Part shown: positions 2,513 to 38,994 of the stretch, piece by piece
Layout: each line of letters begins with the position of its first letter
Position numbering within the stretch: the first letter of the stretch is position 1
Source: a virus
Taxonomy: Duplodnaviria > Heunggongvirae > Uroviricota > Caudoviricetes
IMG/VR virus record: IMGVR_UViG_3300008987_000001
DNA length: 64,000 bases
Strand: one strand, 5' to 3'
Notes under the pieces: generated by a model
Database searches by the model: none
Told to the model about the DNA's origin: nothing
What the model saw: only the letters and a program-made list of their open reading frames with translations
Translations under genes and position numbers: made by a program

Positions 2513-4453
2513 ATGACAACATATAGAGTGTGGAATGGAACATCGTGGGAATATATCGATAATCAAAATTATGATGCACGATATTTACTACGTAGTGAGT
2601 TGGGTGCAGCAGAAGGTACTTCTTCATTAGATTCATCTGGACACATACCTACTGAACAATTACCAAGTAGTATTACCGGGGCGGTGAGTTATCAGGGAAC
2701 CTTTGATCCAACAAGTGGATCCCCAACTCCTGCAGCCCAAGGATATTACTATGTAAGTGATGGAGTAGGCACAATTGATACTACATCCTTTGCAACTGGT
2801 GATTGGCTTGTATATCGTGATGATACTACATGGGATAAAATTGCCAATAGTAGTGCTAGTATTACATGGTCTAATATATCTGATAAACCTGCAGGTTATA
2901 CACCGGAATCACATGGTAATGAAGCACATGATGTAGTTTATGCCGTGACAAGTGATATCACATATGAGACGCTTAACACAAATGGAGATGTGGGGGTTAG
3001 TGCAGGACAACTCGCCATTGGTAATCATACCCATAGTGATTTACAACCAATTGATGGAGATCTCACAGCAATCGCTGCATTAAGTGGAAGTGCAGGATTA
3101 CTTCGCAAGACTGCATCTAACACATGGACACTTGATACTAACACATATATTACATCATTAACTAAAGCACCCGATTCAACCTTATGGGATGGTACTGCAT
3201 TACCATCATTTACCGACAATGAGTTGAAGTATATAAGATTGAATGCCGGTGGTGATGCTCTTGAATTTAGCAGTGTTTCCATTGCAATAAATGCCACACA
3301 ATGGGATGGAGTAGCACGTCCAGTATTAACTGATAATGCACTAAAATATCTACGTGTTAATACTGATGCAAGTGCCCTTGAATTTGCAACTGTAAGTGGG
3401 GGAGATGGAACTTGGGGTAGCATTACTGGAACCATATCAGATCAAACTGATTTATATAGTGAATTTGCAACAGTTGATGATAGCAGGTTTACTGATGCCA
3501 GAACACCAACTGCTCATAATCTAATTGATACAACCGGGCACTCTGTTAGTGGACTTACCATTGGGCATTTCCTGAAAGCGACTGGAGCAACAACCTATGC
3601 ATTTGGTGCTCATGGTTTAACTGCCAGTGATGTAGGTGCTCAACCAGTAGATGATGAATTAACGTCACTTGCCGGATTATCACTTACTGGGAATGGTGGA
3701 AAGGTTATATCTGTTAAATCTGATGTTTCTGGATTTGAATTAACAACTCCTGCAACTGGTGGAGATATCACATCTGATGGAAACTGGGTTGCTGCAGGTG
3801 ATCTCATTGTTGGAACTGGTGAAAATACTGCAGCGATTTTAACAAAAGGAACTGAAGGACAGGTTCTCAAAGTTGGATCATCAACTCTTGAATGGGGTGC
3901 AGAAACAACGTATTCTCTTCCAACTGCCGCATCAGATACTCTTGGTGGAGTAAAAATTGGAACAGGTATATCAATTGCTGCCGGAGTAATTACACCAGAT
4001 ATTAATGGACTCACATTACTTGATGAGGCTCCAGCAGATGGAGATTATTTTGCAATATATGATACATCCGGGACTGCACTCAAAAAGGTTGCTGCATCTA
4101 ATGTGGGTGGATCGTCTGGTGGGGGTATTACATGGAATGAAGTCACAGGCACTACACAGGCTGCTGCCGTTGATAATGGATATATCTGTAACAATGCAGC
4201 ATTGGTGACTGTAACGTTACCATCTACCTGTGCATTAGGAAAGACCATCAGAGTTGCTGGTAAGGGTGCTGGGGGATGGAAAATTGCCCAAAATGCAAGT
4301 CAGCAAATCCATTTCGGTGATCAGTCTACAACATCTGGAACTGGTGGATCTATATCGTCCGGGTACAAGTACGATGCGATAGAACTGATATGTATTACTG
4401 CTGACACGACATTCCTTGTCATATCCGCAGTTGGAACGATGGATGTGGTCTAA
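2513..4453 (+). CDS. Tail-fibre / receptor-binding protein (GNHTHS HxH motif, repeated WDG..LP..D..LKY...ALEF modules)
   Basis: 646 aa, Gly/Thr/Ser-rich. HxH motif as in long-tail-fibre tips. Internally repeated ~40-aa module shared with ORF 1-2059. Confidence 0.5.
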   Translation: MTTYRVWNGTSWEYIDNQNYDARYLLRSELGAAEGTSSLDSSGHIPTEQLPSSITGAVSYQGTFDPTSGSPTPAAQGYYYVSDGVGTIDTTSFATGDWLVYRDDTTWDKIANSSASITWSNISDKPAGYTPESHGNEAHDVVYAVTSDITYETLNTNGDVGVSAGQLAIGNHTHSDLQPIDGDLTAIAALSGSAGLLRKTASNTWTLDTNTYITSLTKAPDSTLWDGTALPSFTDNELKYIRLNAGGDALEFSSVSIAINATQWDGVARPVLTDNALKYLRVNTDASALEFATVSGGDGTWGSITGTISDQTDLYSEFATVDDSRFTDARTPTAHNLIDTTGHSVSGLTIGHFLKATGATTYAFGAHGLTASDVGAQPVDDELTSLAGLSLTGNGGKVISVKSDVSGFELTTPATGGDITSDGNWVAAGDLIVGTGENTAAILTKGTEGQVLKVGSSTLEWGAETTYSLPTAASDTLGGVKIGTGISIAAGVITPDINGLTLLDEAPADGDYFAIYDTSGTALKKVAASNVGGSSGGGITWNEVTGTTQAAAVDNGYICNNAALVTVTLPSTCALGKTIRVAGKGAGGWKIAQNASQQIHFGDQSTTSGTGGSISSGYKYDAIELICITADTTFLVISAVGTMDVV

Positions 4454-5413
4454 ATGGCCAAACAATCTGCTTTTTACGAACCGCCATCTGATTCCCAGAC
4501 GTATTACCGCTCAACGGGATACTGGTCAATTGGTATTGGTATTGATCGGGGTATTATCGCGGGTGGAACCACTGGATCCGTGAGCAATGTCATTGACTAC
4601 ATCACCATATCACTTGCAGGGAACGCTACTGACTTTGGTGATCTGACAGTTGCACGAAGTCAACTTGGCGGGGCAGCATCATCAACTAGGGGTATAATTT
4701 TTGGAGGAACAACTGGATCGGTAAGCGATGTAATTGACTATGTAACAATTGCTACAGTTGGTAACGCGACAGATTTCGGAGATTTGGATGCTGCACGGCG
4801 TGGTGTATCTGGGTGTTCAAATGAGACAAGAGGATTGCAGGTTGGAGGATATACCACTGAAGCAGTCAATGTAATTACCTATGTTACTATAGCAACAACG
4901 GGTAATGCAACCGATTTCGGAGATTTAAGTGCAGTAAAATATTTTACATCAAGTTTGGCATCATCTACAAGGGGGATTGCTGCGGGTGGATATGATGCAG
5001 TAGATGTTATTGAGTATGTGACTATTGCTACAACCGGAAACGTGACGAATTTTGGTGATCTATCTACTGGAAGAGATTTGTGTGCAGGGTGTAGTTCATC
5101 AGTTCGCGGATTGATTATTGGTGGATTGAATAGTGGAGACACGTATCTGGATAGCATTGAGTATGTAACAATTGCTACAACAGGCAATGCTGCGTCTTTT
5201 GGAAGTTTGAGTGCTACACGCGGGTATTCTGCAGCAACATCAAACGCATTACGTGGAATCATTGCAGGTGGATTGAATTCAAGTGCAGAATATCTGAATG
5301 TAATTGAGTATGTAACAATTGCTACAACAGGCAGTTCAACTGATTTTGGCGATTTGACAGTATCAAGAAGCATCTCTGCTGGATTATCAGATTGTCATGG
5401 TGGGCTCGTATGA
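4454..5413 (+). CDS. Repeat protein: six ~48-aa blade-like repeats (core GG..S.VIDY[IV]TIATTGNATDFGDL), possible Kelch-like beta-propeller; C-terminus SDCHGGLV
   Basis: ATG abuts the stop codon of the fibre gene. Six full repeats are visible in the translation. Tandem paralog follows. Confidence 0.55.
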   Translation: MAKQSAFYEPPSDSQTYYRSTGYWSIGIGIDRGIIAGGTTGSVSNVIDYITISLAGNATDFGDLTVARSQLGGAASSTRGIIFGGTTGSVSDVIDYVTIATVGNATDFGDLDAARRGVSGCSNETRGLQVGGYTTEAVNVITYVTIATTGNATDFGDLSAVKYFTSSLASSTRGIAAGGYDAVDVIEYVTIATTGNVTNFGDLSTGRDLCAGCSSSVRGLIIGGLNSGDTYLDSIEYVTIATTGNAASFGSLSATRGYSAATSNALRGIIAGGLNSSAEYLNVIEYVTIATTGSSTDFGDLTVSRSISAGLSDCHGGLV

Positions 5414-8895: not shown

Positions 8896-9418
8896 GAGTG
8901 ATGATACCTCATTAATATATTACCAATTAATATCACAACATCAGAATAACTAATGCAATACATCTCACACTACCTCATCATCAACAATCCATAACCACTG
9001 TATGCCATACTCTGGGAATGATGAGATTTTACCATCCTCATTGATTACTTTGAATACTGCTCTATACATGCCACCAGTGTCGGTTTCCCCAGTTGCCCAT
9101 GCATATTCAACAAGTCCTTCAGATTCACTCACTATGCTACATGGTTGATCTTCAATAGCCCATGTTTCTGCATTAACTCCACGCATAGAGAATGTAACTG
9201 ACATTCCATCGAGATCGTATGGTTCAACTCCTTGGGTATCAATGTTCCACTCTTCAATGGAATACTGCAATGGAATGGTGTCACCTTTCTTGTATCTAAT
9301 GGTAACCGTCATATTATATACAAGTGATTACATTATATATAAATGTTTAGAAAGAGATTATATATTGCAAGTAATGAATTGAGTAGTTAAAAGTTATAAT
9401 ATCAGAACAATACACTAC

Positions 9419-16516: not shown

Positions 16517-17560
16517 TCATGTAATCGCAGTTATTACCTCACGAGCGACATGATAAAACACTTCCTTGCCATCCCACAGACCCTTAATCACCCTACTATC
16601 AACTCGAATGGATTCACCTTTACTACTAACCAATTTTGTCATACAGTGGTATCGTTCATCACGAATCATGTCACCAAGCACCTGTATAATACTTGAACAA
16701 TCACCTACCTCATGGACAATAGTAATTGACTGACCAATCAGATTCCCATTAGGATAGCCAAGCCTCATTCTCACCGCATCATTTATTGCAAGTATACTAC
16801 CTTCAAGACCCACAACAAAAATCATATCGGTCATTTTATTAAAAAGAGTGCGAAAGTTTTCACGTTCAAGATCCAACTGTTGTTGTGATGATTCAAGTGA
16901 TGAGATTGTATGCATTAAACTATCATTTGAAGTTCTCAATTCTTCTCCATGAACTTCAAGATCCATGACCTTTGCTTCTAATTCCTGCTCAACTTCGAAT
17001 CTATATAATACATGCCCGAGATGTTTTCCAAGGGTTCTTAATATATCACATACATCATCAGAGATTTCAATATCATTAAATGCCCCAATATTGATACAAC
17101 CCTTTACTGCATTATTATACAGAATTGGAACAGATATTAGTGTTTTAATACCACCGAGCAATGATGCAGTTTCCTGATACTTCTGATCATAATGCTTAAC
17201 ATAAACTGGTTTTCCAAACTGAAATAATTCACGGAGTTCCGGACGCTCTATACATATTCGATTCAACGTTTCAATAGCATGAACAGGAACAAACTTTGTT
17301 GCCACGACCTCTGCTCTACGTTCATGAATTAAGTAGATGCCCCCAATATCAAAATTGACAAAATCTATTGCTGCTTCTAGTATACCCTGAACCAACTCTT
17401 TTTGAGTCTTTGATTCATTCGCCTTGACAATAATCCCATTAAATACTTTAAGACGACGATGTTCACGAGATATAACAGAATCCTTCTCATACAATTGATG
17501 AGACAGGCTTTTTATATTATTTATTTGTTCCGCAATCGCCATCGACATTAGCAAAGACAT
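16517..17560 (-). CDS. GAF + PAS sensor-domain protein lacking an obvious output domain
   Basis: N-terminal GAF-like region and a C-terminal PAS-like segment (MTDMIFVVGLEGSILAINDAVRMRLGYPNGNLIGQSITIVHE...). Confidence 0.5.
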   Translation of the reverse strand: MSLLMSMAIAEQINNIKSLSHQLYEKDSVISREHRRLKVFNGIIVKANESKTQKELVQGILEAAIDFVNFDIGGIYLIHERRAEVVATKFVPVHAIETLNRICIERPELRELFQFGKPVYVKHYDQKYQETASLLGGIKTLISVPILYNNAVKGCINIGAFNDIEISDDVCDILRTLGKHLGHVLYRFEVEQELEAKVMDLEVHGEELRTSNDSLMHTISSLESSQQQLDLERENFRTLFNKMTDMIFVVGLEGSILAINDAVRMRLGYPNGNLIGQSITIVHEVGDCSSIIQVLGDMIRDERYHCMTKLVSSKGESIRVDSRVIKGLWDGKEVFYHVAREVITAIT

Positions 17561-19654: not shown

Positions 19655-22600
19655 TCAATATCGTCTGTATCCATTATTACACACCGTAAAATCTCTTGTA
19701 AATGCAAAGTAGCCTAAATTAGTTGACTTGCAAATCTTTAGGGTCATGTCCATAAGACCGCGAGGATCTGGTTTCTGCTCACCGAGGTAAATGTTGCAAA
19801 TGTTTCCACCGTCGAGTATCGGGAAGAATGCCTGCTCAATACGAATCTTTTCAGCGATTTGAATATCAGCATCTACCGGGACGTGCGTACCATTTGTATA
19901 GTAAATTGGCAAATCGCGTGATCCGGTCTCGGCATACTTTTTAATGGCAGCACGAACATCGCCTTTAACAAACTTATGAGCATCGCCATAGTTAAGTAGA
20001 TCAAGCACCGCGAACCTTTGTGCTGTCGTTTCTGCTGGAGTTCTTGAAAATGATAACTTAATATCTTGTTCGGTGGTCATTTTTTTGCAATATTTATTGA
20101 GTTCATTGCATATCTTCAATGTAAACATATGTGCTCCATTATCAGAATACAATGGTTTACCAAGCATAATCTCGCATACCTCATTCATACCAACGATTCC
20201 GATAGTGAATACGTAATCTGATAGGTCTAGGAATGGTGGAATTAATTTTCCAGTGATAGAATCTCGTTTTATATGTGTTGGAAATGGGAGCATGCCATTA
20301 TCTATACACTCGGTTATCCAACCGCGTTTAATTTTAAAAATCTCAATGGCTAATTGAATGTTTTGTTTGCACAATTCTATGAAAGTATCTATGTTACCAG
20401 TGGATTCATATGCATATCGTGGCATGTTGAGCGTTATTACCTGCGCAGAACCCATGGTAAAGTGCTTTCCATCTCTAAAGTATAGTTTGTTATCGAAATC
20501 TGGATCTCCTTCCTCGCCGCTTGAAAACGAAAATGCGCAATTCGAAGATACCATTCCTTGGGCAGTAATAAATAAATGATCTGTTACTTCTACTGGATCA
20601 TATACATCCCCATCATACGGAGATGTTTCTATCTTAACAATTGGTGATTCCCATTTACACTCTTTATTAATACACGCGAAGAAAGATTTAACTTCTTCTT
20701 GTTTATTAAGGGTTAATATATGTCTAGTTTTTCTGTTTGGTCGTTTATCTTCAACGATTGAATACTTAAAATCATATCCAAGGCTACCTGTCAATAACAA
20801 TACCCCTTCAGCTAATGGTTTTGAAATTGTATTCATTTCAATACGAAGAATTTTTGATTTTGTTCCATTCTTACGAAGGCATCCATCGCCACGATAATAT
20901 CCATTTATAAATGCCCATTTACATTTAATTGGGGCATTAAGAATGAATGTCGGAACTGTCATATCGCGACCTTTCATCGCAACACCAATTTCAATAAACC
21001 AATCATGAATCTTATTGCTGTGAATGAATACCGATGTTCCAGCACCCTTATTTACAGACTGTAATTTGGCATCATATCCAAACACATTTTTGATTATAGA
21101 AACGGTTTTATTTATTAAATCAACCTCATGTGATCCATAGCACCACATTAAATGTCTATTTGTTCCATTTGGACTGATCGTGCTACTTCCTTCTGCAGCA
21201 AATAAACCAAGTAAATAACAAAATTCAACATCATTTTGTTCTGATAAAAACTTTGGTATTTTACCATTCGTTGGTAATTCACAATTTATAAAGGCTACAT
21301 CGCCAATAGATAAATTCTTTAATTCTAATATTCCACGATTCTTTATCGGAATTTTATGATCAAATGTACCACATATTCTTCTTCCACCATCTATTTTAAT
21401 AGTATACACATATTCGTTTATATGGTGTATCATAACATGACTGAATCCATGATGTCCAGATGGTGTAACAACAACATCATCATGTTTGAGTTCTGATATT
21501 GGTATGATACGAACCATTCCATTGTCAACAATCTGAATTAACGTATCTGGTAACAACGAACACTGCATGCACGAAATGCCTTTTCCGGCCCCACGATACT
21601 GTGGAATCATGTTATCAAAATATGGGGTTCCAAATTTACTTGCTAATTGAAATGCTGAAAGATATAATTCCCGAATACTTGGGTAATCACCAGACACCCC
21701 ATGCTCATCCTCATATTCCATCTTTGCTATGTATTCGGGTTCGAACGCAATCTCTGGTTTTGGGAAGTAAAATGGTTTGCCTGCGTAATCACCTGCGAGC
21801 ATCACATCCATAAATGCCTTGAATAGCAAACGATTCTCGCGTTCGAACTCTCCATAAGTTTCTGGACCAACATTGCCCTTATAAATCGCAGGCTTGTCGT
21901 TCCACATTTCAGGTATTGAAGGCGATAACTGTACGGAACTGAAAATCTGCTGGCCGCCTCTCGAAGTAAGCATCTGCGTCATTTCAAAGATAAAACATTG
22001 CATATTCTGTTTAATTTCTTTATATGTACAATCTTTGAAATATGGTGACAAAAAGCACAGGAAATTATAGAATCCCTCGCCCCCGGCAAAGTTAACTTGC
22101 CCACTGCCTAAAGTCTTTGATGCGTGGAGTATTGCAACTTCTGGGCGCATTGCCGGTCCTGCAACTGATGTGTGCTCTCCTGTACCATCTCCTGTGAATC
22201 CATAATAAAATACATACCGTAGATCCCAATCAGCACAAAAGTATCTACTTGTGATGTATTCTAAATCATGAATGTGTAAATTACCATTAAGGTGTGCTTC
22301 AGATAAATGCTCTGGGAGCATTAAAAGTGCTTGTTCCTTTGCCAGTTGATCGGCTTTTCTTTTGTGTACGGTTTCTGGGGAACGTTGTAAATTGGCGTTA
22401 TCTCCCTTTCCACCACCAATATCAGTCATTCTCGCATCATACACTGGCATCCCAACACGAGTATATTTGCGCCGACATTCATTCATATCACGTTCTAAAA
22501 ACTTGGTATTAACAAACTCCCTAATAAGTGGGCCTGTTACTGGATCGATTTTTAGAACACTTAATGTATTATATACATCATCAACTATATCTTCAATTGC

Positions 22601-22696
22601 TTTTCCGGTGCACCCAGTTTCTTTACGCACAGAATCGATAACTTTATTTCTATCAAATGATTCAATAGATCCATCATCCTTCCTTACTCTTACCAA
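19655..22696 (-). CDS. Ribonucleotide reductase catalytic body with N-terminal ATP cone, interrupted by an intein; lacks its own glycyl-radical C-terminus (see 22923-23228)
   Basis: ATP-cone motif VRKDDGSIESFDRNKVIDSV. Extein is 672 aa after removing the 341-aa intein. A glutaredoxin and an NrdD-type GRD are encoded directly upstream on the same strand. Confidence 0.6.
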   Translation of the reverse strand: MVRVRKDDGSIESFDRNKVIDSVRKETGCTGKAIEDIVDDVYNTLSVLKIDPVTGPLIREFVNTKFLERDMNECRRKYTRVGMPVYDARMTDIGGGKGDNANLQRSPETVHKRKADQLAKEQALLMLPEHLSEAHLNGNLHIHDLEYITSRYFCADWDLRYVFYYGFTGDGTGEHTSVAGPAMRPEVAILHASKTLGSGQVNFAGGEGFYNFLCFLSPYFKDCTYKEIKQNMQCFIFEMTQMLTSRGGQQIFSSVQLSPSIPEMWNDKPAIYKGNVGPETYGEFERENRLLFKAFMDVMLAGDYAGKPFYFPKPEIAFEPEYIAKMEYEDEHGVSGDYPSIRELYLSAFQLASKFGTPYFDNMIPQYRGAGKGISCMQCSLLPDTLIQIVDNGMVRIIPISELKHDDVVVTPSGHHGFSHVMIHHINEYVYTIKIDGGRRICGTFDHKIPIKNRGILELKNLSIGDVAFINCELPTNGKIPKFLSEQNDVEFCYLLGLFAAEGSSTISPNGTNRHLMWCYGSHEVDLINKTVSIIKNVFGYDAKLQSVNKGAGTSVFIHSNKIHDWFIEIGVAMKGRDMTVPTFILNAPIKCKWAFINGYYRGDGCLRKNGTKSKILRIEMNTISKPLAEGVLLLTGSLGYDFKYSIVEDKRPNRKTRHILTLNKQEEVKSFFACINKECKWESPIVKIETSPYDGDVYDPVEVTDHLFITAQGMVSSNCAFSFSSGEEGDPDFDNKLYFRDGKHFTMGSAQVITLNMPRYAYESTGNIDTFIELCKQNIQLAIEIFKIKRGWITECIDNGMLPFPTHIKRDSITGKLIPPFLDLSDYVFTIGIVGMNEVCEIMLGKPLYSDNGAHMFTLKICNELNKYCKKMTTEQDIKLSFSRTPAETTAQRFAVLDLLNYGDAHKFVKGDVRAAIKKYAETGSRDLPIYYTNGTHVPVDADIQIAEKIRIEQAFFPILDGGNICNIYLGEQKPDPRGLMDMTLKICKSTNLGYFAFTRDFTVCNNGYRRY
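20540..21562 (-). mobile_element. Intein with LAGLIDADG homing-endonuclease domain inside the RNR gene (aa 379-719)
   Basis: N-terminal Cys (CSLLPDTLIQIVDNG block A). LAGLIDADG motifs FCYLLGLFAAEGS and KWAFINGYYRGDGC. C-terminal GMVSSN followed by +1 Cys. Confidence 0.6.
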
Positions 22697-33907: not shown

Positions 33908-34769
33908 TAAGTTATATATACTGTCAATACCAATGTTATGATCTAATTGGTGACAAGATACTTTTCAGCATCAACATTTTTCATTGGGCAGGTCACCAGG
34001 CCCAAAACAATTATGTTTAATAACATCCAAACCAAATTTTAAACTTAATATACATCCATAACAATGAACTGATCATTTTGTGCATATGCTTTCTGCACAT
34101 TTACCACGTATAAAAAAGTGGTTGCCTTAACAACAGTCATGGTCACAGAATATCATCGAGCCCTAATACTACATTTATCCGGTTTCTCAACTTGATAAGG
34201 TCATGTTTACTGATTTGAAAATTATAAGTATCGAGCCTAACGAAATATACACGTTATGAGTCTTCAGTTTCAATACTAAATACAGCACAATCAGCAGTAT
34301 TCTGGGGCCACGGATCTTCTACTAATTTAATCATTGTATCACCAGCATTCATAATTACTAATATCTTCTTCTGCTTTGCATCCTTCGCAGCATATAATTA
34401 CAACCACTCCAATACCAGTGAACCATACTTTGTAATATATCTTACCACAATGTCGTGCTTTAAATTCATCAGCACGTTGCTGTTCTATATCATTTAAATT
34501 TAATCCAGTTGACATAACATACTCCTCACGTTGTAATATTAATTAGATTTTGGATCATTTCAGCCTTTTCCCATTCATGACATAAGAATGGTGGCACTTC
34601 TGCTTCCATAAATACACATATGACTGTATTTGGTTTATCTCCCCATTCAAGGAAGTATAAACATCGCTCATCACAGTATTGTTCCATGATAAATAGTGCG
34701 TGGAAGAGTCGAACTTCCCTCAATTGGGCCAAAACCAATTATGGTTACCGATACACTAACGCACTACAG

Positions 34770-34800
34770 TCCCAATTGAAGGACTCGAACCTTCGAACCT
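34770..34800 (-). ncRNA. tRNA-like 3' fragment (T arm GAAGG-TTCGAGT-CCTTC + acceptor 3' strand) without an identifiable 5' half
   Basis: Reverse complement reads GGTTCGAAGGTTCGAGTCCTTCAATTGGGA. Confidence 0.3.
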
Positions 34801-35185
34801 ATAATGCTCGTGGGGGTTTTGATCATTGCATTATAGCACATGGTTTCACAGGGTAATACAGTGAGTAATTCACCATACACACTCCATGTGGTCAGGCCAT
34901 CTGACTTAAACTGGGTTGGTGATTTGATACACTGGTGATTTAGGTGAAACCCTTGGTGGGAATTTAACCCACATACTTGCGTCTATCACCAGTTCTGTGA
35001 CGTTGCTGCAGTATTCTTTCACATGCTTAATTACAAGGGCATGTGGATTGTCAATGTGATTCCTTGTCTATGCTCCTACGGGTGGAATCAACCCTGCGAG
35101 TCACAGCCATAGACCGCCGTATCCCGCCGAGTCGTTTCACGGGATAATTACACACTCCAACTGAATGGACTAGCGACAGTGTGGA

Positions 35186-35266
35186 TAATCGGTGCAGGAA
35201 TCGAACCTGCGACCCAATTCGGGATGACCTTTTCAGTCACGACTTTACCAATTCATCCAACCGATT
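35186..35266 (-). tRNA. tRNA-like gene, 81 nt, class-II architecture (perfect 7-bp acceptor stem AATCGGT/ACCGATT, T arm GCAGG-TTCGATT-CCTGC, variable-arm hairpin CCC-GAATT-GGG); anticodon not confidently assigned
   Basis: Hand folding of the reverse complement. Followed by a TCCA trailer. Confidence 0.5.
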
Positions 35267-35527
35267 ATTGCATTTTTTATCTGTCACTACCTAGGATAAC
35301 AGTCCTGTTATGCTTCAGGATAACCGACGGTTGGAATTGAACCAACTTTGCACCCTACTTGTCTCATCGATTACATATTATGGTGTGACCCATAAACATG
35401 TCAGACCTATCGTGGTTAGGCCAAGTTTGGTTTCGACCAACACCGTTGATCCCCTGTTTTCCTTCAGGGAGGCTTCTGGAGGTTGTTTTCACCTCTTTTA
35501 AGTTTGTTTATACCAGCCACGATCTGG

Positions 35528-35608
35528 ATGACAGCAACCGGATTCGAACCGGTGAAGGACTAACCACAGGATTTTGAGTCGTGCCTCGTTTCCACTTGAG
35601 TATACTGT
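35528..35608 (-). tRNA. tRNA, class II, probably tRNA-Leu(CAA): acceptor GACAGTA/TGCTGTC, 3-bp D stem CTC/GAG, anticodon loop CTCAAAA, T arm ACCGG-TTCGAAT-CCGGT
   Basis: Hand folding of the reverse complement. 81 nt. Followed by a TCCA trailer. Confidence 0.55.
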
Positions 35609-35827
35609 CGGGTGTTTATAATGTATTTGCATCGACATAAAGATATACATGGTTTGACCCATAGTATACCTCCCACACATTTTCGCAAACTACATATATC
35701 AGTCACAATGACATATCACTGTGCTATATACATATAAGTTGTATAGACATAAATGTGTATCGGTTACAATAGTGGTCAGGCCATGCCACAGCACCCAACC
35801 AAAAGGAGGAACTAACATGAACACCAC

Positions 35828-35900
35828 CTGCCTTGACAAAATAGAAAGGAAGAAGATCCTCCTTTCATACTATATGTCGTTTAGGGGGGTACCCAATATG
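35828..35900 (-). repeat. Intergenic structured repeat, copy G, directly upstream of the tRNA cluster
   Basis: TTGGGTACCCCCCCTAAAC ... AAAGGAGGATCTTCTTCCTTTC ... TATTTTGTCAAGGCAGG. Confidence 0.45.
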
Positions 35901-35934
35901 TATGTAGCAACTTATATATAATGGTGATGTTATA

Positions 35935-36357
35935 ATGATTTTATATATGAAGATATACTGCCCACATACAATTGGGAGCACTAAACCAGTTGTTTGTGAT
36001 CATGGGATGATACATGACACACGCTGTCCGTTTTGGCAACAGGATGGTCAATATGTCCATGTAGAGAATCTTATGGATAGTCCAATGGTGCTAGAGAGTG
36101 CTCTATGTAAATATATACCCAATATAATTCGTGATTTTGAAGTTGTGGGTAACTATAGATGGTACTGCACACAGTGGCCTGGAATCCGTGAGAAGGGGTA
36201 TGTGTGTATGTTGCAGGATGGACTAGGTAACAAGTTCACTGTGAGTGAAGTGGTATCACGTTATGCAAAGGATGAAGATTGTAATGAAATGATTAAGGAG
36301 GTGACAATTACTAATGATGGAGAAGGAGAGATCCAAGGATATAACATGTACCATTAA
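35935..36357 (+). CDS. Hypothetical protein
   Basis: TATA box AACTTATATATAA at 35910-35922. Confidence 0.3.
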   Translation: MILYMKIYCPHTIGSTKPVVCDHGMIHDTRCPFWQQDGQYVHVENLMDSPMVLESALCKYIPNIIRDFEVVGNYRWYCTQWPGIREKGYVCMLQDGLGNKFTVSEVVSRYAKDEDCNEMIKEVTITNDGEGEIQGYNMYH

Positions 36358-36594
36358 AGGTACGGTGTATGATATTGATGAAGTATATTTTGAGCACATA
36401 ATGAGGCAGTTAGGTGAGTTCTTATGTGAGCGCTATAAGCATGTTGATGTCGTAAGTCCATTGGAAGTTATGAGTCAGATTGCTTACATTGATGATCTCA
36501 CAATTCATGCCAAAATGTACATGGCATTCTGGATAGGTAAGCATAGCGAAAATTTAGAATATGAAGGATATATTTTGGCATGTATGAATAACGA

Positions 36595-38994
36595 TTAGAA
36601 CCAAGCCTCCAGTGTATTTTGGCCATTGATTGCTGATTCCCAGTTAAGGCCAATGCTCCACATATAACTTTCCATTTTATCCTTTATACATTTATCTGCC
36701 ATAAGTTTCCAATCAACATCATGAATTATTTTCGAAGTATCAAATCCATCATCAATACAGATTACTCGATCTTCTTTGAGATATACTAAACGGGGCTTCT
36801 CTCCTTCCTGGATAATATATCCATACTCATTCTTTGCATATTCTTTACCATCTAGCCATGAATTCTTCTTATCATATTTCAACTTACGTAGTTCCTTTGG
36901 TAATGATATATCATATATATCTACTTCACCATTTCGAACTCGTTGGTATAGATTCTTTACATGGTTTGTAGCCTTATTCACATCACCTTCAATAATTGCA
37001 GTTTCTAGGAAGTATAGTAGGCATTCCTTTATTATTTTCGGATTATCAGAACGTTTGATTTCAAGACCCATGAACTTTAATTCACTGCATTCAGTTCCTT
37101 CTTCCCAAATTAAGTGTCCTGCATACTTCTTTTTCCCAGTCTTGTTTCGATCTGTTGTTTTGGATTTGAATAATAGACGTCTAAATAACTTCTCCGCTTT
37201 GAGTTTGAAATGAACAGACGAACCTTTTTCATCTGACCACTTTACCAGTTCTTCATTAAGGTATTTTTCTAACTCTAAACATTCGGAGCCAGTAAAAACC
37301 TCAGATATGAAAACGGAGTCAGTATCTCCGTAGATTATCGATTTGGAGCGATTAGAACAAAGTTTCTGTATATGCCTATTGAGGTCTTGTCCAGTTTGGG
37401 TAATGAATTCAGCTTTCTCACGATCATATAATCGAGCAGATGGAGCCCCCATAATACCAAACACACTATTTACAAGACTCTTTGCAGAACTGTCGCGTGC
37501 TCCTGCTCCCAATAGTCCTTGTTTTTTCTGTTCTCTATACATCTCGCGAAGATCCATAAGCTTCTTGGTTGATTTTGCCACAACTCCATCTATATCGGGC
37601 GAAACAGAAAATCCAACGATCACATGTGGATAAAGGGCATTTAAATCCACTGTAGAAACCCATTCGTGAATTCCGAACGTTGGCTCGACTACAAGGGCAC
37701 CCTTGAACTTATCTTTTTCTCCTCCATACTTCTTACGGGGCATTGGCTTAATTCCTTCATGCATGACATACATTTCAATAACAAGTGAATTATGTAAACC
37801 ATCCATTATTTTATTCCCTGCAATCGATCTTGTAGTCTCAAAGAAATTATACAGACCAAGTTTCTTATCAATTACTTGTAGTGCTATAACATCATTCTTA
37901 CAATATTCAATGAATTCATCAAATCGTTCTTCATTGATAATCTGATCGAGGATTGGTGCAATATCTTTATAACTAAATGCAGCATCTTCTAATAATTCTT
38001 CATCAGATATAACTGATTTGAGTCCATTAGATTCGCGTTGTCCCTTTCCAATATTATATTTCTTAAATGCTTCCATCTCATCAAGAACTGCTCTACCAGG
38101 AATATATGAGCGAAACTTTCCATAAGTTGGATCATATTTAATTGAACAAGATCCATATCGTGGAATTCCTTTAAGATTTGTTCCAATATTAATAGAACGG
38201 TTAATTAAGTATGGTATATCATACTGATCTGAATTCCAAGCAGCTAAAATGTCTGGATTTATTTCATGCACATATGCGCAGAATAATTTAAACAACTCTT
38301 TTTCAGTCTCACAACATATTTGGCATGGGTCACCAGTCTCGCCAATTTGATAAGTAAATACTGCAATCTTTTCAGTATACGAATCCATGACTTGAATACT
38401 TACTACTGGATACTCTACATCCTTTGCATTTGGAAATATACCTTCCGGAGCACGAGTTTCAATATCAAAATATACAATACGTGGATCCATTACATGTTCT
38501 ATGTCAATTGGAGAAGGAATTCCATCTATAAGTGTATATGCATAACGGATTTTATGATCTACAAGAAATCGTTTATCAAACAAAACATCACTTTCATCAG
38601 TCCATGAATAGATATCACGGACTTTTGATACATCACTTGGTATCTTGACATTTACACGTTGAATTTCTCTACCTTTCGCATCAATTATTATTTCTGGATC
38701 TACATTTGTAATTAGTTCATGTATACGATGAGATTCATTAACAGGACAATAGAAGTATGGATTATATTGAAATGAATGTGTAACAGTCTCAAACTTATCA
38801 TTATAATTTCGCGAATACAAATCTACATATGGGACTCCATATTGTAAATGGTATCCACTTTCCATGACAACCCATATTTGATCATCAGACATGTATACTA
38901 TATACAACTGCAATGTATAAAAAAGATGTGAGTTATACCCACATGATACCAAGGAAGAACCCAATAATAAGTCCAATGATAACCATGAGGACAC
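36595..38994 (-). CDS. polB: Family B DNA polymerase
   Basis: Exo I FDIET. Motif A DLNALYP. Motif C IIYGDTDSVFI. 799 aa. Confidence 0.8.
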   Translation of the reverse strand: MSSWLSLDLLLGSSLVSCGYNSHLFYTLQLYIVYMSDDQIWVVMESGYHLQYGVPYVDLYSRNYNDKFETVTHSFQYNPYFYCPVNESHRIHELITNVDPEIIIDAKGREIQRVNVKIPSDVSKVRDIYSWTDESDVLFDKRFLVDHKIRYAYTLIDGIPSPIDIEHVMDPRIVYFDIETRAPEGIFPNAKDVEYPVVSIQVMDSYTEKIAVFTYQIGETGDPCQICCETEKELFKLFCAYVHEINPDILAAWNSDQYDIPYLINRSINIGTNLKGIPRYGSCSIKYDPTYGKFRSYIPGRAVLDEMEAFKKYNIGKGQRESNGLKSVISDEELLEDAAFSYKDIAPILDQIINEERFDEFIEYCKNDVIALQVIDKKLGLYNFFETTRSIAGNKIMDGLHNSLVIEMYVMHEGIKPMPRKKYGGEKDKFKGALVVEPTFGIHEWVSTVDLNALYPHVIVGFSVSPDIDGVVAKSTKKLMDLREMYREQKKQGLLGAGARDSSAKSLVNSVFGIMGAPSARLYDREKAEFITQTGQDLNRHIQKLCSNRSKSIIYGDTDSVFISEVFTGSECLELEKYLNEELVKWSDEKGSSVHFKLKAEKLFRRLLFKSKTTDRNKTGKKKYAGHLIWEEGTECSELKFMGLEIKRSDNPKIIKECLLYFLETAIIEGDVNKATNHVKNLYQRVRNGEVDIYDISLPKELRKLKYDKKNSWLDGKEYAKNEYGYIIQEGEKPRLVYLKEDRVICIDDGFDTSKIIHDVDWKLMADKCIKDKMESYMWSIGLNWESAINGQNTLEAWF

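Follow-up and report, generated by a model that had tools for sequence, protein, structure and literature searches.

The DNA studied here is a 64-kb stretch (hereafter the window) of a tailed virus recorded as IMGVR_UViG_3300008987_000001, whose genome measures about 133 kb. At 33908-35935 it holds an island that an initial annotation, made from the letters alone, had described as non-coding DNA with tRNA-like genes and repeats, and as a possible replication origin or former integration site. We find there a series of RNA genes and tRNA-derived units running on the minus strand from 35735 to 34693, co-oriented and divergent from the plus-strand genes at 35935-36598. Based on the evidence below, the island is probably a partly decayed viral tRNA array that also contains a structured RNA, here called Z, in a large tailed virus encoding a family-B DNA polymerase (PolB). 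A viral tRNA array is a known kind of feature; Z is a new RNA candidate. Read along the minus strand, the features follow one another as listed, down to the small protein genes and a last tRNA fragment.

35722-35735, minus: conserved 14-nt motif ATATGTATATAGCA, upstream of the RNA array; candidate promoter element
35642-35670, minus: alpha hairpin 1, found by folding; long stem, loop GG-GUCAAA-CC
35529-35609, minus: tRNA-Leu(CAA), class II, A73, no encoded CCA; ARAGORN 113.3, Rfam 48 bits
35410-35522, minus: Z RNA, 113-nt structured RNA in the spacer between tRNA-Leu and the minihelix; covariance model R1
35374-35400, minus: alpha hairpin 2, loop GG-GUCACA-CC; repeat D4
35322-35371, minus: truncated tRNA-like minihelix of 50 nt, read from the sequence; no D or anticodon arm
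35182-35267, minus: class-II tRNA-like gene, perfect acceptor stem, A73; ARAGORN 'Phe-AAA' 104.6, Rfam 39.7 bits (35186-35266)
35041-35181, minus: decayed segment holding repeat copy 2 (35134-35159) and a degenerate class-II variable/T-arm copy (35084-35099)
34948-35040, minus: 93-nt tRNA-like element; ARAGORN at relaxed threshold only, fold z-score -1.8
34769-34915, minus: 147-nt five-arm tRNA-like cloverleaf; unconstrained minimum-free-energy fold, z-score -3.27, equalled by 1 of 200 shuffles
34693-34766, minus: canonical tRNA-Gln(UUG); ARAGORN 118.4, Rfam 52.4 bits at 34694-34765
34526-34687 and 34254-34352, minus: small open reading frames (ORFs) from the ORF list, neighbours of the next gene
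34339-34515, minus: gene for a 58-aa protein, preceded by GAGGAG, downstream of the RNA array
33999-34019, minus: fragment like the tRNA-Gln anticodon arm; direct repeat D3, 86% identical to 34727-34747

The T arms that had been taken to mark tRNA-like elements on the minus strand are borne out by counting. The motif GGTTCRANTCC occurs four times on that strand of the island (34781, 35197, 35333 and 35540), with a fifth window match at 9221, against an expectation of 0.18 per 64 kb, and none of 100 shuffles reached five. ARAGORN and Rfam (RF00005, gathering threshold 29 bits) concur on three minus-strand tRNAs in the island, so the tRNA finders proposed as a check did not come back empty. One class-II gene is indeed tRNA-Leu(CAA), 75-80% identical to tRNA-Leu(CAA) of L040-L043 (L-numbers denote the related viral loci or contigs used for comparison). 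The canonical tRNA-Gln(UUG) had been overlooked, which left the earlier inventory incomplete.

Two 81-nt class-II tRNAs with an ATCCA trailer had also been reported. Both exist, each with A73 followed by TCCA, but the second has an abnormal anticodon loop, either the 7-nt UGAAAAG with G33 or alternatively the 9-nt loop CUGAAAAGG. A seven-nt loop with U33 and a sense anticodon is present in Leu(CAA) and Gln(UUG) and absent from 35182-35267. The L082 copy of this element is identical in its body (100%) and differs in the anticodon arm (GUGGUUGAAAGGUCAU against GUGACUGAAAAGGUCAU). We therefore file it as tRNA-like, because an abnormal and variable anticodon loop sits on a class-II A73 body. In the tRNA-Ser(UGA) of L056 (3812-3898) the near-universal U33 is replaced by C33 (loop CCUGAAA), and odd anticodon loops may be frequent among these viruses. 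The three tRNAs and the tRNA-derived units are co-oriented within 920 nt and qualify as a viral tRNA gene array.

The description of the island as 2 kb without coding capacity holds for the RNA genes at 34693-35735 and fails for its 3' third (33908-34690), where small minus-strand protein genes lie. By tblastn, the product of 34339-34515 matches a 57-aa gene that is called in L001/L003 (E 5.5e-9 at 37% identity), L001 being the closest PolB relative, and GC skew over 34100-34700 is of the minus-strand coding type. Plus-strand ORFs of 60 aa or more, said to be absent, do exist in the mechanical sense, three in number (34620-34856, 35310-35501 and 35721-35921); they are not credible genes because they overlap the RNA genes.

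A structured RNA within the array

The structure predicted for Z is a closing helix, P1 (UCGUGG/CCACGA), and three hairpins (GAGGU-GAAAACA-ACCUC; CCCUG-AAGGAAAA-CAGGG; GAUCAAC-GGU-GUUGGUC), and it is backed by covariation. The conserved core reads GAGGUG...CCUGAAGGAAAACAGG...AACGGUGUU. A first match came from BLAST of the island against the PolB-relative loci, in a 131-nt gap between tRNA-Ser(GCU) and tRNA-Asn of the L008/L056 array, and pattern scans of metagenome and genome collections added L082, L083 and L086 as homologues. The covariance model R1, for which two sequences were used, recovers the five copies with 70-139 bits (E 1e-16 to 1e-36); about 1 Mb of related loci yielded no other convincing match.

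In an alignment that is fitted to the model and spans three lineages only, pairing holds in 98.3% of cells, with compensatory changes at seven pairs, located in P1 (5 of its 6 pairs) and two other helices. This covariation score was reached by none of 500 shuffles, and sliding the 3' partners as a control cut the pairing to 29-49%. The closing helix is wholly different in L083 and L086 (CCUGUC/GACAGG), with a core that is about 93% identical. Because G-U pairs fix the strand, Z is placed on the minus strand. It comes after a class-II tRNA both in the window, at a distance of 6 nt, and in L056, at 8 nt; in L083 and L086 it stands alone in an intergenic region.

Two other identities for Z were considered and rejected. 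An Rfam 15 search (E<=10) gave no family match, the best scores being 9-13 bits against gathering scores of 34-75 bits and falling on the wrong strand or on part of the sequence; Z thus belongs to no RNA family described there. Nor is it a peptide gene: the flanks and termini of the sole shared frame are not conserved, P1 covaries, and the L008 frame runs into tRNA-Asn. Additionally, the window and L082 read the invariant hairpin GAGGUGAAAACAACCUC in two different frames, an argument against coding constraint. An extra search with the hairpin GAGGTGAAAACAACCTC returned chance-level matches only. Z is thus a candidate new RNA family, and a concrete one, with coordinates, a covariance model and five members, that can be tested in metatranscriptomes.

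The tRNA region of bacteriophage T4 encodes the small stable RNAs C and D (species 1 and 2), which are matured from tRNA precursors by tRNA-processing enzymes. Like these, Z is a non-tRNA small RNA inside a viral tRNA cluster, and it may be processed in the same manner. T4, however, has a bacterial host, and the likeness of its RNAs to Z is one of location.

Aberrant elements and turnover of the array

In the 147-nt element, a 7-bp acceptor stem (CCCAGUU/AAUUGGG), a D-like hairpin and a T arm (GAAGG-UUCGAGU-CCUUC) are accompanied by a 54-nt arm, closed by the perfect helix CACAUGG/CCAUGUG, and by another arm of 38 nt (9-bp stem, 20-nt loop); its 3' end lies only 3 nt from tRNA-Gln. The 93-nt element has the acceptor stem GCCCUUG/CAAGGGU and the T arm GUGGG-UUAAAUU-CCCAC, with a degenerate D and anticodon region. 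The minihelix pairs AUCGAUG with CGUCGGU (two G-U pairs) and carries the T arm GUUGG-UUCAAUU-CCAAC. Two elements had been said to consist of a T arm and an acceptor 3' strand only, which understates both: at 34781 there is the full acceptor stem and the D-arm-like hairpin just described, and at 35322 a matching 5' acceptor strand lies 35 nt upstream. Since an RF00005 search at E<=10 matched none of the three elements, they are not filed as tRNAs. Some of the units are best taken for pseudo- or aberrant tRNAs, as had been proposed.

Traces of duplication surround these units. The fold of 35041-35181 is no better than that of shuffles (z-score -0.58), and self-BLAST aligns 35212-35197 with 35099-35084 at 87.5% identity. 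The trailer of the class-II tRNA-like gene weakly resembles the tRNA-Leu trailer and the start of Z (66% over 44 nt). Judging from its match to the tRNA-Gln anticodon arm, the fragment at 33999-34019 is a remnant of a duplicated tRNA. On the plus strand, 35755-35771 repeats the tRNA-Gln D-arm region in inverted orientation (88% identity to 34740-34756), and upstream of tRNA-Leu lies an imperfect palindrome of 138 nt (35648-35785); together they are a further sign of rearranged tRNA fragments.

Since relatives of the virus carry intron-bearing tRNA genes, the suggestion that island elements might be intron-containing tRNAs was tested closely, and ARAGORN intron mode, deletion scans and a bulge-helix-bulge (BHB) scan all failed to support it. 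Intron mode (0-500 nt) returned no intron tRNA from the window. When every interval of 8-459 nt was removed and ARAGORN rerun (758,682 constructs), the survivors were marginal and all near the reporting threshold: 19 junctions in 34769-34915, 15 spanning 35371-35732, and two singletons. The 147-nt element is the strongest and most recurrent candidate not built from a known tRNA, and the sole one with independent fold support. Single deletions lift it to at most 102.9, against 113-118 for the native Leu and Gln genes, and the best of 358,399 double deletions reached 112.8 with a 9-bp 'anticodon stem' and C33; a high-scoring tRNA after intron removal was therefore not obtained from the island elements. 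The BHB scan of the island gave 215 weak matches against 159±16 in shuffles, which is near background. Its best match, a 16-bp BHB-like pairing at 35329/35254, was discarded on account of substitutions that break it in L082, and the hBHBh' motif (a 4-bp helix flanked by two 3-nt bulges) is absent from the island.

These negative results are meaningful because the same scripts recover genuine BHB introns and rescue interrupted genes in relatives. The positive controls were tRNA-Gln(UUG) of L018 (552-709; 85-nt intron; recovered as H4, a7, b6) and tRNA-Thr(UGU) of L053 (842-974; 60-nt intron; H4, a5, b3), both interrupted at the canonical 37/38 position with a perfect hBHBh' motif and both overlooked by default ARAGORN. 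Such perfect motifs indicate that these viruses depend on the host's archaeal splicing endonuclease, and hence that host BHB splicing serves some viral tRNAs in the same lineage. Rescue was seen in L024, where tRNA-His(GUG) and tRNA-Gly(UCC) score 118.5 and 119.1 once an insert of 53 or 56 nt is removed. These inserts lie at the D-arm/anticodon-arm junction and show no clean BHB; a 3' motif common to both, ACGG(T/A)TACTTC, is repeated some seven times in the vicinity. L024 holds four T-arm-bearing elements in all (4307-4372, 4424-4548, 4747-4877 and 4880-4961), none of them called by default ARAGORN. The window therefore resembles the archaeal BHB-intron tRNAs in the company it keeps and in the insert-like arm of the 147-nt element, and differs from them in having neither a BHB motif nor a clean spliced product.

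Comparison with relatives places the array in a wider setting. Homologues of the window's plus-strand ORFs at 35935-36598 adjoin, in L056, an array of 18 canonical tRNAs and Z on the opposite strand; the window array, at the syntenic site, looks like a reduced and rearranged version of it. Arrays of tRNA genes are found near PolB in at least 15 related viral contigs. In L040-L043 tRNA-Leu(CAA) is the immediate downstream neighbour of PolB, in L031 the two are within 1.1 kb of each other, and L053 has a Leu(CAA)-containing array after a PolB fragment; no tRNAs occur near PolB in the close PolB relatives L001 and L002. In the 3.1-kb contig L082, which matches parts of 35150-35800 at about 92% identity, extra hairpin copies stand in place of tRNA-Leu. 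At the level of sequence, its comparison with the window shows rapid turnover, with tRNA-Leu replaced and both the minihelix and an anticodon arm altered. Turnover of the array is also seen on a larger scale, from about 18 genes plus Z in one relative to two working genes plus remnants in the window.

The minihelix has longer counterparts. That of L082 (179-240, minus strand) measures about 62 nt, keeps a D arm, lacks the anticodon arm and has a compensatorily changed T stem (GUGGG/CCCAC). A similar element of about 62 nt, also without an anticodon arm, lies upstream of PolB in L001 (9566-9627). Both have a 7-bp acceptor stem, a 30-nt interior starting with UAA and a canonical T arm, and the 50-nt minihelix of the window is a shorter version of them. 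Orphan T-arm motifs are frequent in the relatives.

Interpretation and alternatives

If the island is a partly decayed tRNA array with Z, it would be transcribed as one or a few precursors, which host RNase P and RNase Z would cleave at every acceptor/T-arm module. The 3' ends would be completed by the host CCA-adding enzyme, needed because no CCA is encoded. The two canonical tRNAs would extend the decoding capacity for UUG and CAA, and Z would be released as a stable small RNA. The aberrant elements would be decaying copies of a once larger array, which is the simplest account of them; a relative has 18 tRNAs and Z at the syntenic site. They may still act as processing punctuation or as decoys.

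Known tRNA clusters of archaeal tailed viruses offer a precedent for this picture. HGTV-1 carries 34 tRNA genes, including three putative pseudogenes, two of undetermined type and one with an intron (PMC13532342; also PMC8651126). The clusters of HGTV-1 (Hagravirus capitaneum), Hafunaviridae and Druskaviridae resemble the window in having co-oriented tRNA genes in a large PolB-encoding virus, with regular tRNAs mixed with pseudogenes and undetermined types (PMC13532342, PMC8651126). They differ in that only two of about seven units are canonical in the window, that its array includes a conserved non-tRNA structured RNA, and that its genome is AT-rich. There is also a likeness to mascRNA and the viral tRNA-like structures (RF01684), which keep the 'top half' of acceptor and T arm while the anticodon domain is non-standard or missing, and a related L024 element is a weak match to the mascRNA model (19.3 bits). 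The window elements, by contrast, have no significant Rfam match and are known here from sequence alone.

Several observations weigh against the reading of the island as a decaying array. Transcription of the array, its promoter, the processing of its units and their function, as well as the decay rather than use of the aberrant ones, are what we infer from the DNA letters. Codon usage gives no clear rationale for the two canonical tRNAs, TTG making up 15% of Leu codons and CAA 54% of Gln codons. Z is known from five sequences in three lineages only. The class-II body is unchanged in L082 although the anticodon arm differs, and the pairing of the minihelix is preserved through G-U transitions and the compensatory change in its T stem relative to L082; both hint at selection on non-decoding tRNA-like RNAs, not pure decay. 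Finally, the 54-nt arm of the 147-nt element lies at the same D-arm/anticodon-arm junction as the L024 inserts. The element may therefore carry a non-BHB type of insert as in L024, and some elements may be interrupted but functional genes.

Taken further, the last point would make the aberrant elements functional disrupted tRNA genes, with non-canonical introns or inserts, several introns or expanded anticodon loops, that yield decoding tRNAs. The genuine BHB-intron tRNAs of L018 and L053 and the rescued His and Gly genes of L024 speak for this, as does the class-II element, for which both the window and L082 allow the reading Y32-U33-GAA-A37 with a loop of 9 or 8 nt. We nevertheless regard it as unlikely, given that intron mode found nothing, that deletion products stay below the genuine tRNAs or need a 9-bp stem and C33, and that the BHB scan rose barely above shuffles, with a best match not kept in L082, while its controls were recovered. 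The observations on selection lead instead to tRNA-like elements and Z as functional non-decoding RNAs for host takeover, acting as decoys for tRNA-targeting defence nucleases or tRNA-binding enzymes, with Z mimicking a host RNA such as a CRISPR repeat hairpin and handle. The recurrence of anticodon-arm-less elements in L082 and L001, the many orphan T arms and a Z core kept across contigs with entirely different closing helices fit this idea, and the Z hairpin GAUCAACGGUGUUGAUC followed by GAAAC has a layout that we take to be like that of a CRISPR repeat hairpin and handle. Yet a scan of the genome collection with the Z core found no CRISPR-like multi-copy locus, no match to the Z hairpin sequence was found in the literature, and what the window shares with L082 may be due simply to a recent common ancestor (92% over 166 nt). 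This explanation is quite unlikely in our estimate. Should a function be confirmed for Z and the tRNA-like remnants, viruses of methanogen-type archaea would have their first described non-decoding RNA effectors. A broader proposal, which we consider possible though doubtful, is that Z founds a new class of virus-encoded structured small RNAs that reside in the tRNA arrays of archaeal viruses and are matured by tRNA-processing enzymes, and that, together with the anticodon-arm-less RNAs of about 50-62 nt, would form a non-decoding toolkit titrating host tRNA-binding or defence proteins or mimicking a host RNA.

The proposals made for the island at the outset fare worse. An attachment site, past or present, would explain the T-arm and acceptor 3' fragments as attP cores or as remnants of integration into host tRNA genes, into which many archaeal proviruses integrate (PMC8651126). 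The segment 35322-35346 is a T arm with an acceptor 3' strand, and its L082 counterpart is a different, equally well-formed T arm and acceptor, as expected if it tracked a different host tRNA. However, the fragment has its matching 5' acceptor strand and belongs to a co-oriented tRNA array syntenic with the full array of L056, and no integrase or recombinase domain was found among the 38 window ORFs, which leaves former integration very unlikely. As to a replication origin with ORB-like repeats (ORB, origin-recognition box), the direct repeat GTTTCACRGGRTAAT...TACACACTCCA is real and present in exactly two copies in the window, at 34843-34886 and 35134-35159; the coordinates first given (34843-34890 and 35127-35152) were wrong, the second pair being shifted by 7. 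What sets copy 1 apart from copy 2 is an inserted hairpin of 18 nt. Neither half-motif is rare by itself (as many matches arise in 16 and 20 of 100 shuffles), and a search of IMG/VR for the repeat pattern found none. The repeat is short and intergenic, loosely resembles the mini-ORB, and stands between divergent genes. Against an origin, there are two direct copies only, one of them split by 18 nt and lying inside the stable fold of the 147-nt element (in its 54-nt arm), and both are in the most GC-rich part of the region (44-46% GC over 34700-35600 against about 35% in the surroundings and genome), and the interval between the copies contains no AT-rich unwinding element. At 34-36 kb the cumulative GC skew has neither an inflection nor a polarity switch, local skew following gene orientation, and a Pfam search found no Orc1/Cdc6, Rep or integrase domain among the 38 ORFs of the window, that is, of 64 kb out of the whole genome. 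In copy number, orientation, AT-rich element, linked orc1/cdc6 and skew, the window thus departs from archaeal origins, and we hold an origin here to be exceedingly improbable; the direct repeat is a part of the RNA modules that was duplicated, and not an origin repeat bound by proteins. With this false lead removed, the region is to be annotated as an RNA-gene array with three tRNAs and not as an origin or attachment site.

Flanking elements, virus and host

Among 108 loci, exact copies of ATATGTATATAGCA occur, besides the window, only in L082, L083 and L086, on the same strand and upstream of Z or its array; L008/L056 carries Z without an exact copy. A near-copy lies inverted on the plus strand at 35896-35909, ahead of the divergent ORF at 35935. 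The motif may be a promoter element. Scanning for sigma-70 promoters was not informative, giving 11 sites where 10.3 are expected. The alpha hairpin motif GGGTCAHACC has two copies in the window, both in the island, three in L082 and one in the non-coding region upstream of PolB in L001. Together with TGGCCTRACC it was considered as a protein-binding iteron and set aside, since overall counts across loci are near chance and the clustering alone stands out.

The divergent region that separates the RNA array from the ORF at 35935 has a palindromic hairpin of 10 bp, GAAAGGAGGATCTTCTTCCTTTC, which is followed by a T-run on the minus strand and scored as terminator-like (35844-35866 and 35802-35865). 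A TATA-like sequence, AAsTTATATATAMTG, occurs on the plus strand at both borders of the island, one copy after the stop of the Bro-N gene (33909-33923) and the other 12 nt upstream of the ATG at 35935 (35909-35923).

PolB is encoded on the minus strand of the window at 36595-38994. Its best annotated relatives are haloarchaeal tailed viruses of the HF1/HF2 type, at about 24-25% identity; nearer, unannotated relatives are metagenomic contigs of 64-136 kb, and one homologue bears the name of a Methanospirillum metagenome-assembled genome (MAG). The phage GenBank set yielded no close relative of the window lineage and IMG/VR a few only, and exact-protein look-ups with window proteins gave no match. 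The tRNA-Tyr genes of L008 and L038 are class I (72-74 nt). Drawn from relatives in this way, the class-I tRNA-Tyr, the BHB tRNA introns, the tRNA arrays beside PolB and the haloarchaeal and Methanospirillum affinities of PolB point to an archaeal host. The 34.5-kb viral contig L100 (JBAZHE010000013.1), identical with L008/L056 and bearing the 18-tRNA array and PolB, was deposited within a 'Patescibacteria group bacterium' MAG; its class-I tRNA-Tyr and the affinities of its PolB make a binning error probable.

Other genes of the window encode an anaerobic ribonucleotide reductase, NAMPT, thymidylate synthase, thymidylate kinase, rhamnose-pathway proteins, glycosyltransferases, and Bro-N and KilA-N proteins. 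The reductase (NrdD; 19655-22696, minus strand) contains an intein with a LAGLIDADG homing endonuclease, and inteins are also present in several PolB homologues of relatives (P0004, P0005, P0012, P0022 and others). A GAF-PAS sensor-domain protein, an unusual viral cargo, is encoded on the minus strand at 16517-17560.

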